The position numbers were made by a program, and so were the translations under genes. DNA of 24,060 bases from positions 1 through 24,060 of the IMG/VR virus record IMGVR_UViG_3300033074_001684; one strand, written 5' to 3'. The notes below the pieces were generated by a model. The model searched no databases. It was not told where the DNA came from and saw nothing but the letters and a program-made list of their open reading frames with translations. This stretch comes from a virus. Of the stretch, positions 21,051 to 23,411 are shown one piece after another. Positions within the stretch are counted from its first letter, which is position 1. Every line of letters begins with the position of its first letter.

Positions 21051-21330
21051 CGGTAGCACTATAATCGTGCCCCCGTTCTTTTCCAAACTGCTGGTGACGT
21101 TCACAGCGATTCCACCATTCGTCCCAAGGATTACACGCAAACAACTTGACTTTGGGAATCCAACACCGATGGTGATCCTTTCCTTTATCACACGAGTGAA
21201 AGAACGCATTGAAACTGGTGGTCTGCCGATAAAAATCCGACTCCGTTGGCAACGGCATCCACAAAACATGCACTTTCACATGCTCTTCTTTCACCAGATC
21301 AATTTCAACTACAGAATACTTTCTAGGCAT
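21022..21330 (-). CDS. hypothetical 102-aa protein
   Basis: ATG overlaps the end of the upstream KOW-Cys gene by 8 nt. Confidence 0.45.
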   Translation of the reverse strand: MPRKYSVVEIDLVKEEHVKVHVLWMPLPTESDFYRQTTSFNAFFHSCDKGKDHHRCWIPKVKLFACNPWDEWWNRCERHQQFGKERGHDYSATDDRRLPRIL

Positions 21331-21628
21331 TCGATCCCATCACCTTCACGCCGCATTCTCCTGTACATGAGTGTGGATACGACGGACAGAGCTTTCCTTG
21401 CTGCATGAGAGCTTGCATTCTCTTGCGGCGGGCTTCACCAGTTGTCAACTGTTCTTCTACCCTACCTTTGTACTCCAGGTGTTCTTTGTCATACGACCTT
21501 TCATACGGCAATCCCTGAATTTGCACAAGCACTCTTCCATTTCCCTCAATGCCTGTAATAACACCAGTCTGTCCTTGGTGCTTGCCGATGGTGATTTCCA
21601 CCTTGTTTCCCTTTTGCGGATTTCTCAT
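21323..21628 (-). CDS. KOW-like / Cys-motif small protein, paralog A (101 aa)
   Basis: MRNPQKGNKVEITIGKHQGQTGVITG is a KOW-like KGDxVxVxxGKxxGxxGxV motif. C-terminal CPSYPHSCTGECG. 60% identical to the product of 23043..23327. Confidence 0.6.
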   Translation of the reverse strand: MRNPQKGNKVEITIGKHQGQTGVITGIEGNGRVLVQIQGLPYERSYDKEHLEYKGRVEEQLTTGEARRKRMQALMQQGKLCPSYPHSCTGECGVKVMGSNA

Positions 21629-21646
21629 ATCTCGCCCTTCTTATCT

Positions 21647-21727
21647 TGGTAGCTCCGGTGGGGGTCGAACCCACAATTGTCGCCGGGTTTAAGCCAGCCG
21701 CATATGCCACAATTCTGCTACGGAGCC
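21647..21727 (-). tRNA. type-I tRNA with anticodon UAA (Leu-type anticodon, discriminator A) but no long variable arm; atypical
   Basis: Reverse complement GGCTCCG TA GCA..GG..TGC G GCTGG CTTAAAC CCGGC GACAATT GTGGG TTCGACC CCCAC CGGAGCT A CCA (81 nt). Confidence 0.65.
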
Positions 21728-21972
21728 ATATCTTTTTGTCCACTGTCTTGATACCCAAAACAGTGAGCTTCCCATTCTCCAGTTTCTTCGTTGTATCTCA
21801 TCCCGCCAGCTTCATTACATCCATAAAACACACATTCTTGTGGAATGTATCCTTCATGTGTTTCATCAATGTATTCTTGGCGCATCACCATTCCCAAATG
21901 ATGAGATTCCCACGAATGGCCGCACATACAAATTCCTGTACAACCTTCTCCACTGTATTTCGCTTTATACAT
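21718..21972 (-). CDS. Cys/His-rich 84-aa protein (CTGICMCGHSWESHH)
   Basis: ATG lies 7 nt after the CCA of tRNA-Leu(CAA). The TAG stop lies at positions 8-10 of the downstream tRNA. Confidence 0.5.
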   Translation of the reverse strand: MYKAKYSGEGCTGICMCGHSWESHHLGMVMRQEYIDETHEGYIPQECVFYGCNEAGGMRYNEETGEWEAHCFGYQDSGQKDMAP

Positions 21973-21979
21973 AAAACTT

Positions 21980-22067
21980 TGGTAGCCGGGGAGAGACTTG
22001 AACTCTCACGCCCCGAAGGGCACCAGATTTTGAGTCTGGCGTGTCTGCCAATTCCATCCACCCGGCC
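21980..22067 (-). tRNA. tRNA-Leu(CAA), class II
   Basis: Reverse complement GGCCGGG TG ..GG.. CCAGA CTCAAAA TCTGG, a long variable arm, then GAGAG TTCAAGT CTCTC CCCGGCT A CCA. Discriminator A. Confidence 0.85.
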
Positions 22068-22073
22068 AAAACT

Positions 22074-22271
22074 TTATTCCCCCTCGTTCCACGGAATATG
22101 GTCACGTGGAAACGTAACTTTCTTTGGATTTACAGCCCAAAGCCGTCTTTGAAACTTCTTTGAAAATAGGATGTCTTCAAACCGTACCTTCTTCTGATTT
22201 TCATCCGGCAACGCTCCACACATCGTACAGCGTCTCGATTCAAAATCGGTTTGGCATTCCCTACACTTCAT
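22074..22271 (-). CDS. zinc-ribbon 65-aa protein (CRECQ...CTMCG)
   Basis: GAGG 6 nt upstream of ATG 22271. The stop lies 6 nt before the tRNA-Leu(CAA) 5' end. Confidence 0.5.
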   Translation of the reverse strand: MKCRECQTDFESRRCTMCGALPDENQKKVRFEDILFSKKFQRRLWAVNPKKVTFPRDHIPWNEGE

Positions 22272-22443
22272 CTTCATCCTCGATTGCCATCACAATAGTT
22301 TCCAGTCGCTCTCTCATCTTCGAGCCTTCTGCAAACTCCAAGCATGAAAACTGTTCGTGCCCACAACCAACAAAGGTGAAGCTAACATCAGAAACATTAC
22401 CTATCGGATCTCTATCAACTGTGATAGTGCGTATTTTCATCAT
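22261..22443 (-). CDS. hypothetical 60-aa protein
   Basis: ATGA-coupled to the upstream gene. Confidence 0.45.
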   Translation of the reverse strand: MMKIRTITVDRDPIGNVSDVSFTFVGCGHEQFSCLEFAEGSKMRERLETIVMAIEDEDEV

Positions 22444-22673
22444 GGCAAGTTCGTCTCAATATCCGCCCAACACCCAGAGCAACGAGCATACAGATCACCA
22501 TATCTGTGCATCATTTCTCTCTTGCAGTCGCAACAGTACCAACGAAATTCACAAGCATTCACATCGCTGCCGTCAAAACAAGTGCATTCACCAGTGGATG
22601 GCGGATGAAACGCTGCTTTTGCTCGTTTCTTTTGTTTTCGTGATATAAACGCTGGTTGCTCGTTAATTCTCAT
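22440..22673 (-). CDS. Cys-rich 77-aa protein (CTCFDG..CEFRWYCCDCK..CSGC)
   Basis: ATG 22673 lies 6 nt after the CCA of the chimeric tRNA-like element. The upstream part of the track ORF is tRNA sequence. Confidence 0.5.
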   Translation of the reverse strand: MRINEQPAFISRKQKKRAKAAFHPPSTGECTCFDGSDVNACEFRWYCCDCKREMMHRYGDLYARCSGCWADIETNLP

Positions 22674-23046
22674 AAAACTTGGTAGCCCCGGAGGGACTTG
22701 AACCCCCGCTACCCTCATCAGGTAGGCCACCGTTTTCGAGACGGGCACATTGCCGCTCTGTCAATCCTCTACACTGAAAAATCCTAACTCCGCACCAGCG
22801 ACCGCTAGAGTCATTGCAACTGACATCACGAAGACGCCATCTAAGTGTGCATGAACATGTTGTATAAGCCACATCCAAATGACAATGTAAATCAAACTTG
22901 CCTTCCCAATAACCGTTATGCACAAAGAAGGAAATCAACTCTTCATTCGGCGTTCCTCTTGGGCTACAGAACAAATCAACTTTTCCATTCGTTCCCAATG
23001 CAAAGAACGGTGCCGTCCACTCTTGTGACACAGATGTAAACGTCAT
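22663..23046 (-). CDS. hypothetical 127-aa Cys-containing protein whose last ~108 nt run through the chimeric tRNA-like element
   Basis: ATG 23046 overlaps the stop of the KOW-Cys paralog B as ATGA. The ORF does not stop until after the tRNA-like sequence. Confidence 0.4.
   Translation of the reverse strand: MTFTSVSQEWTAPFFALGTNGKVDLFCSPRGTPNEELISFFVHNGYWEGKFDLHCHLDVAYTTCSCTLRWRLRDVSCNDSSGRWCGVRIFQCRGLTERQCARLENGGLPDEGSGGSSPSGATKFYEN
22680..22770 (-). pseudogene. chimeric tRNA-like element: 5' two-thirds match tRNA-Ser(CGA) and the 3' acceptor strand matches the type-I tRNAs; the acceptor stem cannot pair
   Basis: The first ~24 nt are identical to the 18595 tRNA-Ser. The anticodon arm CCGT-CTCGAAA-ACGG carries a compensatory A-T to T-A swap relative to CCGA/TCGG. 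The T-arm is GGGGG TTCAAGT CCCTC. The 3' end CGGGGCTACCA pairs only 2/7 with the 5' AGAGGAT. Confidence 0.6.
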
Positions 23047-23327
23047 TTCACTCCACACTCACCAGAACAAGCGTGCGGCCACGAGGGACACAACTTACCC
23101 TCTTTCACAAGAGCCTGCTGCCGCTTGCGTCGGGTCTCGCCAGTAGTAATCTGCGATTCATCTCGACCCTTATACGCCAAGTCGTCTTTGTCAAACCAGC
23201 GCTCATACGGCAAGCCGGGGATCTGAACTATTACTTTGCTTCCATCCACACCAGTGACAACGCCAATCTGACCTTGATGCTTTCCAGTATCGATTTCAAC
23301 CTTGTCACCCTTCTTTGGATTCCTCAT
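23043..23327 (-). CDS. KOW-like / Cys-motif small protein, paralog B (94 aa)
   Basis: MRNPKKGDKVEIDTGKHQGQIGVVTG...CPSWPHACSGECG. ATG lies 7 nt after the CCA of tRNA 23335-23411. Confidence 0.6.
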   Translation of the reverse strand: MRNPKKGDKVEIDTGKHQGQIGVVTGVDGSKVIVQIPGLPYERWFDKDDLAYKGRDESQITTGETRRKRQQALVKEGKLCPSWPHACSGECGVK

Positions 23328-23334
23328 AATGATC

Positions 23335-23411
23335 TGGTAGCCCCGGTGGGAGTCGAACCCACACTGGACGGGATTTGAATCCGTTCTCTCTGCCAATTGG
23401 AGTACAGAGCT
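23335..23411 (-). tRNA. type-I tRNA with anticodon CAA (Leu-type, discriminator A), 4-bp anticodon stem with an A-C closing mismatch; atypical
   Basis: Reverse complement AGCTCTG TA CTC..GG..GAG A ACGGA TTCAAAT CCCGT CCAGT GTGGG TTCGACT CCCAC CGGGGCT A CCA. It is a paralog of the 21647 tRNA. Confidence 0.6.

Follow-up and report, generated by a model that had tools for sequence, protein, structure and literature searches.

The locus

Two tRNA genes in a phage tRNA array are each followed, a few nucleotides downstream, by a small ORF of the same kind, and the question is whether the pairs form a duplicated functional module. The window analyzed here is the whole 24-kb contig (24,060 nucleotides, IMG/VR record IMGVR_UViG_3300033074_001684), and the gene absences given below apply to this contig, not to a complete genome. 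It carries T4-like baseplate genes (gp5, gp25, gp6, and wedge), with the gp6 homolog sharing 40% identity with its counterpart in Pelagibacter phage HTVC008M. The source is an uncultured T4-like myophage, and the window is an early-gene tRNA array. The array contains nine tRNA genes together with a pseudo-tRNA and a tRNA-like element; these, like all ORFs described below, lie on the minus strand. Small ORFs are interspersed among the tRNAs and are probably cotranscribed with them. Gene order is kept among relatives across the whole region, including MTase, PTP, MVP, and other genes.

The two tRNAs of interest are tRNA-Leu(UAA) (21647..21727, 81 nt) and tRNA-Leu(CAA) (23335..23411, 77 nt), both with an encoded CCA and A73. 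ARAGORN called them tRNA-Leu(taa) and tRNA-Leu(caa), and they scored 43.9 and 43.5 bits with Infernal against RF00005 (gathering score, 29); a default-filter run missed 21647-21727. Their cloverleaves fit the tRNA covariance model, with the Leu anticodons UAA and CAA, and the CAA tRNA has two G-U pairs in its acceptor stem. A long variable arm is typical of class II bacterial tRNA-Leu but is absent from both: their variable regions are about 8 nt (UAA) and 5 nt (CAA), versus 13 to 15 nt in the canonical long-arm tRNA-Leu(CAA) of the window (21980..22067, 88 nt) and in its intact tRNA-Leu(UAG) (23628..23713). The identity set of Escherichia coli LeuRS consists of the A73 discriminator and D-loop tertiary elements. 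The two short tRNAs are 70% identical overall, and 27 of the 29 aligned positions of the 3' T-arm/acceptor segment are identical, in line with the initial annotation, whose coordinates for both tRNAs and both ORFs were exact according to ARAGORN, Infernal, and the ORF list.

Two diverged KOW-Cys proteins

KOW-A (21323..21628, 101 amino acids [aa]) starts 18 nt past tRNA-Leu(UAA). The ATG of KOW-B (23043..23327, 94 aa) lies 7 nt past the CCA end of the short tRNA-Leu(CAA), with no obvious Shine-Dalgarno sequence. A listed 145-aa ORF starting with GTG was rejected as a spurious read-through of the tRNA. In a BLASTP alignment the two proteins are identical at 66 of 95 positions (69%; 87% positives; one 1-aa gap; E value, 1e-52). 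The similarity is far above chance and spans the full length, so the paralogy proposed at first holds and is not limited to the low-complexity N terminus; the motifs quoted for it, MRNP(Q/K)KG(N/D)KVEI...GKHQGQ...CPS(Y/W)PH(S/A)C(T/S)GECG, are also correct. At the DNA level, homology of the two units extends from tRNA position 1 to the stop codon of the shorter ORF, while the flanks and the tRNA-ORF spacers (18 versus 7 nt) do not align. The pair has a dN of 0.187 with saturated dS, third codon positions are 43% identical versus 86% for second positions, and both copies keep all 17 family-invariant columns. Because purifying selection is strong and every invariant residue is retained, both genes are judged to be functional, and they are anciently diverged.

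AlphaFold2 models of both copies (pLDDT, 77) predict a five-stranded KOW/SH3-like barrel (strands 8-12, 21-27, 32-37, 44-47, and 51-56) followed by a helix (63-76), which bears out the KOW-like N terminus suggested by the initial annotation. In KOW-A, the barrel (residues 8 to 56) is encoded at 21461-21607, the basic helix at 21401-21442, and the Cys tail, C81-x6-C88-x3-C92, at 21353-21388. KOW-B has the same architecture, with its tail (C80-C87-C91) at 23055-23090. Against PF00467, KOW-A and KOW-B score 20.3 and 21.4 bits (gathering cutoff, 22.3), and 17 of the 22 family members have a precomputed match to this model. A family profile matched uL24 and Spt5 in the PDB at E values of 0.002 to 0.01. 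The basic helix carries the family motif GE.RRKR... and the C-terminal tail reads CPS[YWF]P[HYF]xCxGxC. The tail had been described as a conserved Cys/His motif; the three Cys are indeed invariant, but the His is replaced by Phe in P0018 and by Tyr in P0026, P0027, P0028, and P0032. The tail alone had no Pfam match and is modeled at a low-confidence pLDDT of 50 to 65. With a noninvariant His and such a model, the tail is at most a candidate for a classic zinc site with four ligands.

The closest known proteins are the KOW domains of NusG and Spt5 (PF00467; PDB 4zn3 and 1m1g). These proteins have an NGN domain, which is absent N terminal to the KOW domain here, the protein starting at the barrel (residue 8), and they lack the basic helix and the C-x6-C-x3-C tail. 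Scores against the NCBIfam models NusG_myco (11.9 to 12.9 bits; cutoff, 150) and UpxY (17 to 22 bits; cutoff, 100) are far below the cutoffs. Ribosomal protein uL24 is of similar length, and its N-terminal KKGDxVxIxxGKxxGxxGxV aligns (profile E value, 0.002), but its C-terminal half is unrelated. Stand-alone KOW proteins of Streptomyces phages, such as Yaboi and Gilson (BFVD), are likewise small single-barrel proteins and match by Foldseek (E values, 2e-4 to 2e-3; root mean square deviation, 0.8 to 1.9 Å over about 50 residues); they are 50 to 65 aa long and consist of the barrel only, whereas the KOW-Cys family adds an extension of about 45 aa with the basic helix and the Cys motif. T4 MotB is also a small early protein with a KOW-like N terminus from a T4-like phage. 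Matches to its family, PHROG 7007, were weak (residues 1 to 28; E values, 0.13 and 0.42), and profile-sequence hhalign detected no relationship by sequence (probability, 0.1%; E value, 0.46). On model scores and hhalign, identity as uL24, NusG, or MotB was rejected.

Distribution and neighbors of the family

Of 1.84 billion cluster representatives searched across the whole library, 16 matched at E values of ≤0.001, about 8 of them family-like. No tblastn match was found in 50,697 phage records, isolated phages have no member, and a PHROG search gave no significant match. The KOW-Cys family is tiny, known from metagenomes only, and previously unannotated in phages. The window is the only locus with two KOW genes, all related loci having one.

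The recurring neighbor of the KOW gene is an R2K ATP-grasp gene, not a tRNA. An R2K-clade gene lies within one gene downstream of KOW in 10 of 15 distinct family members. In L002-L005, L007, L009-L015, and L040, an R2K_3/R2K_2 gene begins −1 to +4 nt past KOW, and the KOW stop and R2K start often overlap; in L006, L016, L017, and L035-L039, the R2K gene lies 170 to 509 nt past KOW. No R2K gene adjoins either window copy, KOW in L001, or KOW in the distant P0024 and P0025. A tblastn search of the 24-kb contig with four R2K proteins gave nothing better than an E value of 0.3. The 102-aa ORF that overlaps the KOW-A stop by 8 nt (21022..21330) has a tblastn homolog in L006 (4194-4496; 39.6% over 101 aa), which sits there between the KOW and R2K genes. 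At the site of the relatives' R2K gene of about 260 aa, the window has only about 140 nt (20882..21021) between flanking conserved ORFs, with no remnant. Conversely, the 2.5 kb around a close R2K homolog, L026, contain no KOW gene, and isolated phages with R2K have no KOW-Cys neighbor.

The tRNA-KOW pairing, whose recurrence in related phages the initial annotation had proposed as a check, is not a constant feature. The relatives' spacing ranges from 7 to 590 nt, frequently with an intervening ORF, and the P0021 lineage has a KOW gene followed by R2K, as in ordinary orthologs, but lacks any tRNA in the 1.9 kb or more upstream of it.

Origin of the second copy

The window does contain two homologous tRNA-KOW pairs, but the two tRNAs are separate genes in the relatives, where they stand side by side with a single KOW gene, so the duplicated module does not hold up as a coinherited functional unit. 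By sequence identity, each short tRNA has a nearer counterpart of its own in the relatives than its window partner: tRNA-Leu(UAA) is nearest to tRNA-Leu(taa) of L006 (83%) and L003 (79%), and the short tRNA-Leu(CAA) shares 84% identity with its short caa counterpart in L003/L016 versus 70% with the window taa tRNA. In neighbor-joining trees of the KOW proteins, a clade of A-type proteins including KOW-A and excluding KOW-B was found in 165 of 200 bootstraps, KOW-B grouped with KOW-A in 0 of 200, and it grouped with P0021 in 80 of 200 (40% support). A search seeded with KOW-B returned only KOW-B itself and P0021 (73%). We infer that the pairs did not arise by a recent tandem duplication of a tRNA+gene unit.

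The surroundings of KOW-B suggest another origin. Its block is bounded on the left by the intact tRNA-Leu(UAG) and includes a conserved tRNA-like element without an encoded CCA (23520..23620), which in an alignment with relatives has 81% mean identity and compensatory changes in the anticodon-like stem; ARAGORN calls the versions in L003/L006/L017 tRNA-Asn(att). ORFx (22780..23046), without a homolog in L001-L006 or a Pfam match, follows KOW-B, and its frame continues into a pseudo-tRNA at the right-hand junction (22676..22772). This pseudo-tRNA, with a partial Infernal match (24 bits, model positions 8 to 63) and no ARAGORN call, is a chimera. A tRNA-Ser(CGA) body makes up its 5' 66 nt (52 to 55 of 66 positions agree with Ser(CGA) genes), and its last 25 nt repeat the 3' end of the window tRNA-Leu(UAG) without a mismatch (25/25). 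Its acceptor strands are unable to pair. An anticodon-stem base pair and the variable-arm type of the Ser part match the relatives' tRNA-Ser(CGA), not the window's own. Two identical tRNA-Leu(UAG) 3' ends bracket the block. In L006, the homolog of o22440 (1706-1861) directly follows tRNA-Leu(tag) (1623-1708); in the window, o22440 follows the chimera.

In our reading, KOW-A, downstream of tRNA-Leu(UAA), would be the resident ortholog of the single KOW gene of each related phage. KOW-B would have come in a block of about 0.95 kb (tRNA-like element, short tRNA-Leu(CAA), KOW-B, and ORFx), probably from a more divergent relative, through recombination of a donor tRNA-Ser(CGA) with the resident tRNA-Leu(UAG) at their similar T-arms. 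Such an exchange would leave two copies of the Leu(UAG) 3' end, one of them in a nonfunctional Ser/Leu chimera. The postulated donor order (short tRNA-Leu(CAA), KOW-B, ORFx, tRNA-Ser(CGA)) was found in no contig. An insertion at tRNA T-arms would make the tRNA genes recombination anchors, not functional partners of the protein, and the tRNA pairing of the KOW genes appears to be a side effect of such recombination.

The origin first proposed, in its ancient form, is a tandem duplication of a [short tRNA-Leu + KOW] unit, in which an ancestor had the order tRNA(CAA)-KOW-B-tRNA(UAA)-KOW-A, the relatives lost KOW-B so that the tRNAs became adjacent, and the window was rearranged later. The relatives' order (short tRNA-Leu(caa), short tRNA-Leu(taa), KOW), with genes at times 7 nt apart, is what loss of the first KOW would leave; the short-arm tRNAs are clear paralogs with a common T-arm and 3' acceptor sequence, both window KOW copies lie 7 to 18 nt past their tRNA, and the KOW-A/KOW-B split is older than the relatives' radiation, as this history requires. 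It would, however, need loss of KOW-B in all of the roughly 10 sampled lineages, and the nearest relative of KOW-B, in P0021, is a single KOW gene with no tRNA upstream and R2K next to it. The block is flanked by a 25/25 repeat and a nonfunctional chimera, which should have decayed if the event had the age indicated by the saturated synonymous sites. The chimera's Ser part departs from the window Ser(CGA) through compensated changes, a pattern expected of a functional gene of foreign origin. We consider an ancient duplication unlikely.

Possible function

KOW/SH3-like barrels have diverse partners, including rRNA, RNA polymerase (RNAP), S10, structured RNA, and, in the cases of PsaE and NdhS, proteins. 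The KOW-Cys protein is probably a nucleic-acid- or machinery-binding adaptor and, judging from the fold, may have a role in translation or transcription. The barrel and basic helix would dock onto nucleic acid or onto part of the host's machinery for translation or transcription, and the Cys tail may serve as a docking peptide or fold into a small knuckle that depends on metal or redox state. In most relatives, the KOW protein would be made together with the R2K amidoligase and would probably be its partner, adaptor, or substrate. Since the window phage has two KOW copies yet no ATP-grasp gene, the protein would also have an activity independent of the enzyme. On balance, and with moderate confidence, the locus is best explained by import of KOW-B via tRNA recombination combined with such an adaptor-type function.

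Other functions were weighed against this. An action on the adjoining tRNAs or their precursor would make the adjacency functional; the protein might chaperone tRNA-Leu, assist its processing or charging, or protect it from host anticodon nucleases. The P0021 lineage, however, keeps KOW and R2K with no tRNA in that upstream interval, spacing and intervening ORFs vary, and with gene order conserved over the whole region, adjacency alone weighs little; we regard this as quite unlikely. Even less can be said for a phage version or mimic of uL24 built into host ribosomes. The likeness is limited to the KOW barrel of about 30 to 50 residues, uL24 has nothing that corresponds to the basic helix or the Cys tail, and the structure is better matched by Spt5 and NusG KOW domains; KOW-B scores 13.4 bits (cutoff, 53.7; TIGR01079) and 15.5 bits (cutoff, 47.65; TIGR01080) with the NCBIfam uL24 equivalog models, which KOW-A does not match. 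A small ORF directly upstream of an ATP-grasp ligase, often translationally coupled and with a strongly conserved C-terminal motif, could also encode a precursor whose Cys-rich tail is modified in a RiPP- or RimK-like manner by the downstream enzyme, R2K enzymes being predicted peptide ligases (PMC4431377). Yet R2K is not a graspetide-type ligase (PMC4431377), the N-terminal part is predicted to be a well-folded domain under strong constraint, unlike a leader peptide, and the tail is equally conserved in the window copies, L001, and P0024, all without R2K. Residues after the last Cys differ among members in length and sequence, which also speaks against the tagging of one fixed C-terminal residue in the manner of RimK. 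This last alternative is the most improbable of the three.

The R2K-clade proteins RimK and CDC123 bind or act on components of the translation machinery. The relatives' KOW and PF14243/PF18299 R2K genes (often translationally coupled) would be comparable to RimK with bS6 and CDC123 with eIF2-gamma; the KOW-R2K link is one of gene neighborhood, and the window has no R2K gene. Burroughs et al. (2015, PMC4431377) predict that R2K enzymes are protein peptide-ligases, with targets yet to be found. A tentative and rather doubtful extension of our reading is that the KOW-Cys protein is the dedicated partner of phage R2K-clade ligases, either a peptide-tagged substrate or an adaptor to a host ribosomal or RNAP target. 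If true, it would be the first cognate protein identified for R2K.2/R2K.3 enzymes, described since 2015 as having elusive targets, and the imported second KOW copy in the window phage would compensate for the lost R2K enzyme.

Significance

The analysis defines a small phage protein family with a KOW barrel, a basic helix, and a C-x6-C-x3-C tail and gives it a testable genomic partner, the R2K ligase, which offers a handle on predicted protein-modifying enzymes with unknown targets. The locus is also a clear case, at the sequence level, of tRNA genes serving as anchors for recombination by which small early genes move from one T4-like phage to another, with the Ser/Leu chimeric pseudo-tRNA as the scar of the event. 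Repeated "tRNA + ORF" units in phage tRNA arrays should be compared with related genomes before they are called functional modules.

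Two conserved KOW-fold proteins with a cysteine tail

Two small minus-strand genes, KOW-A (21323..21628, 101 aa) and KOW-B (23043..23327, 94 aa), each follow a tRNA-Leu gene. The initial annotation had described two such tRNA-plus-ORF units, and ARAGORN, Infernal, the ORF calls, and a full-length protein identity of 69% (E value of 1e-52 in protein comparison) bear it out. The tRNA-Leu(taa) upstream of KOW-A (21647-21727, minus strand) and the short-arm tRNA-Leu(caa) upstream of KOW-B (23335-23411, minus strand) were both called by ARAGORN and scored 43.9 and 43.5 bits with Infernal (tRNA gathering score, 29); an Infernal run with the default filter did not report the former. 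The paralogy extends beyond the N terminus: the DNA is homologous from the first nucleotide of the tRNA through to the end of the shorter ORF at its stop codon, with no relationship in the flanks or spacers.

Purifying selection acts on both copies. The dN is 0.187, and synonymous sites are saturated, with dS not estimable; third-position identity is 43%, versus 86% at second positions, and all 17 family-invariant residues are retained in both proteins. For both copies, AlphaFold2 predicted a five-stranded barrel (residues 8 to 56, pLDDT of about 85), a helix (residues 63 to 76), and a poorly ordered tail that contains the Cys motif, in agreement with the KOW-like fold proposed earlier. The Pfam KOW score is marginally below threshold, and in the PDB the family profile matched uL24 and Spt5 (E values of 0.002 to 0.01) via the KOW motif. 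Distant family members retain the barrel, the "GDKK...YLVK" helix, and a tail of the form CPS[YWF]P[HY]xCxGxC, in which only three Cys residues (C-x6-C-x3-C) are invariant, because the His is often Tyr. The two copies are thus functional, constrained proteins with a predicted KOW fold. A PHROGs search gave no significant match, and the 40-aa tail on its own had no Pfam match.

Two assignments were rejected: identity with uL24 or NusG, since NCBIfam gave only subthreshold NusG, UpxY, and uL24 KOW-motif matches, and homology to T4 MotB, by hhalign. The tail motif, at 21353-21388 and 23055-23090 in the window, includes the string CPSYPHxCxG, which also opens the Cys-rich DUF2769 (PF10967) at the N terminus of an unrelated glutamate-synthase-like protein of 500 aa (contig L045, 3426-4928) and occurs in contig L044. 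The KOW tail alone gave no DUF2769 match, and this likeness, which comes from a pattern search, may be due to chance and is at most a lead.

The KOW-Cys family is very small: 22 proteins were recovered when 5.8 billion clusters were searched with word seeds, and 1.84 billion cluster representatives (one for each 50%-identity cluster) yielded 16 matches at an E value of ≤0.001. No match to KOW-A was found by tblastn in 50,697 phage records, and the family was not found in isolated phages. Stand-alone phage KOW proteins are a known kind; the Cys tail is what sets this family apart.

Genomic setting and tRNA array

The window is a single JGI metagenome contig of 24,060 bp. It encodes T4-type baseplate proteins (wedge, gp6, gp25, and gp5) at 720-8784, and the gp6 homolog shares 40% identity with its counterpart in Pelagibacter phage HTVC008M; whole-window megablast against the 50,697 phage records gave no DNA match. 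From about 13.6 kb to the end, every gene lies on the minus strand, and the KOW genes sit in this one-strand array. ARAGORN found nine minus-strand tRNA genes in it (two Gly, three Ser, and four Leu), interleaved with small ORFs, many of them Cys rich. Those at 20618-20881, 21718-21972, 22074-22277, and 22440-22673 (all minus strand) carry CxxC-type pairs, with one weak double-zinc-ribbon match, and most have homologs at equivalent positions in related contigs.

The same region encodes an 839-aa vault-like protein (15726-18245, minus strand) with the major vault protein shoulder (PF11978, 4e-20) and repeat (PF17795) domains. It is 72 to 82% identical to its homologs in relatives, always with PTP-like phosphatase and tRNA-Ser genes nearby. 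Major vault protein homologs in phages have been reported before (bioRxiv 10.1101/2023.11.10.566534). An adjoining gene, kept in contig L003, encodes a 124-aa RF-1-domain protein (15117-15491, minus strand; PF00472, 38.6 bits) resembling a peptidyl-tRNA hydrolase or an ArfB-like rescue factor. Between tRNA-Ser(GCU) and tRNA-Ser(GGA) lies an FkbM-family methyltransferase gene (19077-19865, minus strand), whose product has a weak TRM5/TYW2 match, is 68 to 74% identical to homologs in contigs L001 and L002, and may be a tRNA-modifying enzyme.

Both tRNA-Leu genes preceding the KOW genes, UAA at 21647-21727 and CAA at 23335-23411, have short, class-I-like variable regions, as do their counterparts in L002 to L017 and L035 to L038; those in L001 are long armed (86 to 87 nt). 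Canonical long-arm tRNA-Leu(CAA) and tRNA-Leu(UAG) are present alongside, and A73 is kept in both predicted short-arm tRNAs. A conserved tRNA-like RNA (window 23520-23620, minus strand; L003, 3569-3652; L006, 3070-3153; L017, 1051-1141) was identified by alignment; ARAGORN reports it as "tRNA-Asn(att)" in the relatives and gives no call for the window copy. Its acceptor-like stem is 8 bp long, the anticodon-like stem shows compensatory changes, and U33 is variable. It lacks an encoded CCA, versus nine of nine true tRNAs with one.

KOW-A starts 18 nt after its tRNA, across a spacer (21629-21646, minus strand) containing GAAGGG. The KOW-B start codon (ATG) lies 7 nt past the tRNA-encoded CCA, with no obvious Shine-Dalgarno sequence in the spacer (23328-23334, minus strand), so that the 5' end of the KOW mRNA may be set by tRNA 3' processing; the spacer is likewise 7 nt in L035 to L038. 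A strong sigma-70-like promoter match (11/12; TAGACA, 16-nt spacer, TATAAT) lies at 23908-23935 (minus strand), upstream of the Leu-tRNA/KOW stretch, and a second (TTGACA, 16-nt spacer, TATACT, extended TG) at 18284-18311. Counts in the sigma-70 and terminator scans were slightly to modestly above shuffle expectation. The T4 late promoter scan (TATAAATA) gave one site, at 13839-13846, far from the KOW genes.

Comparison with relatives does not support a co-inherited tRNA-KOW unit

We compared gene order in about 20 related loci. Typically, tRNA-Leu(tag) and long-arm tRNA-Leu(caa) are followed, sometimes after the tRNA-like "att" element, by short-arm tRNA-Leu(caa), short-arm tRNA-Leu(taa), one KOW gene, an R2K ATP-grasp gene, three tRNA-Ser genes, and the PTP and vault-like protein genes. 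Each related locus has one KOW gene; two are found only in the window. A tRNA does recur upstream of KOW in typical loci, but its distance varies between 7 and 590 nt, a small ORF often intervenes, and the lineage of family protein P0021 has no tRNA within at least 1.9 kb upstream.

The two short tRNA-Leu genes of the window are 70% identical overall, with near-identical 3' T-arm and acceptor sequences. Each is closer to its counterparts elsewhere: the caa tRNA is 84% identical to the relatives' short caa tRNAs, and the taa tRNA is 83% identical to that of L006. They are therefore old, separately inherited paralogs that, on these comparisons, evidently did not arise together with the second KOW copy. 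The duplicated, co-inherited tRNA-KOW module proposed in the initial annotation thus finds no support. In a neighbor-joining tree of the tRNAs, the caa and taa types are intermixed, a pattern suggestive of anticodon switching or gene conversion; tRNA evolution in the array is clearly complex.

Linkage to R2K ATP-grasp genes

In the relatives, the usual neighbor of KOW is an ATP-grasp ligase gene. An R2K gene encoding about 260 aa (Pfam R2K_3 and R2K_2; PF14243 and PF18299) lies downstream of KOW in 10 of the 15 distinct family members, at a gap of -1 to +4 nt in L002 to L005, L007, L009 to L015, and L040 and of 170 to 509 nt in L006, L016, L017, and L035 to L039. Since the pair is found both in A-type loci, where tRNAs are present, and in P0021, where they are not, R2K is a better candidate than the tRNA for a functional link to KOW. 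R2K.2 and R2K.3 are predicted protein peptide-ligases in phage-host conflict without assigned targets (PMC4431377, PMC7824862).

The linkage is not universal. By tblastn, no R2K gene or remnant was found in the window, where about 140 nt (20882-21021) occupy the site of the relatives' gene of about 780 nt; it is cleanly absent between the conserved ORFs (21022-21330 and 20618-20881) whose homologs flank it in the relatives. Neither KOW copy is followed by an ORF with a Pfam match. KOW also occurs without R2K in L001 and for P0024 and P0025, although the contigs of P0025 and P0028, at about 500 nt, are uninformative on gene context. Conversely, L026 has a close R2K homolog without a KOW neighbor, and no KOW gene was found beside R2K in isolated phages Tunturi_5, RsoM2USA, Bambus, and RHph_TM21B or near R2K in nine IMG/VR contigs.

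Among isolated phages, the nearest R2K homolog (40.9%) is in Tunturiibacter phage Tunturi_5 (L019, 591-2780). Its annotation is "ribosomal protein S6 glutaminyl transferase," and a tRNA splicing ligase gene lies immediately upstream of it. At the P0024 locus (L025, 2344-3450), where R2K is absent, KOW is followed at a distance of about 0.9 kb by an ADP-ribosylglycohydrolase gene; this class has a reported association with the R2K.2 and R2K.3 genes of firmicutes (PMC4431377).

Origin of KOW-B

In neighbor-joining trees, KOW-A fell inside the clade of all tRNA-array relatives to the exclusion of KOW-B in 165 of 200 bootstraps; KOW-B paired with KOW-A in none and with P0021 in 80. A KOW-B-seeded search recovered P0021 (73%) as the sole other protein.

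Downstream of KOW-B, at 22676-22772 (minus strand), a partial Infernal tRNA-model match marks a chimeric pseudo-tRNA. The 66 nt at its 5' end form a tRNA-Ser(CGA) body that matches Ser(CGA) genes in the window and relatives at 52 to 55 of 66 positions, with an anticodon-stem base pair and variable-arm type as in the relatives' genes, unlike the window's own. Its 3' 25 nt match the 3' end of the window's tRNA-Leu(UAG) at 25 of 25 positions, the fusion lies at the T-arm, and the acceptor strands cannot pair; it looks like a recombination scar. The ORF at 22440-22673 directly follows the chimera, and its L006 homolog directly follows tRNA-Leu(tag). From this gene order and the bracketing Leu(UAG) 3' ends, we infer that a block of about 0.95 kb, comprising the tRNA-like element at 23520-23620, short tRNA-Leu(CAA), KOW-B, and ORFx (22780..23046, minus strand), was inserted by recombination at tRNA T-arms.

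An ancient duplication of the module in place is the rival account of the two copies. Saturated synonymous sites beside an intact scar favor recent import, and the simplest reading of these sequences is that KOW-B was recently imported from a divergent relative. No contig showed the donor arrangement.

Proposed function

Less likely readings of function are a tRNA-directed role, a uL24 mimic, and a RiPP-like precursor. RimK-like tagging of a fixed C terminus is disfavored, because the sequence after the last Cys varies across the family.

The previously unreported element here is the linkage of KOW to R2K ATP-grasp genes; a literature search found no paper on the KOW-Cys family or this linkage. 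In the reading we prefer, the KOW barrel and basic helix would bind either RNA or part of the translation or transcription apparatus, and the Cys tail may serve as a docking peptide or as a small element that depends on metal or redox state. In the relatives, the KOW protein would be a partner, adaptor, or substrate of the R2K enzyme, and in the window phage, two diverged KOW copies would work without it.
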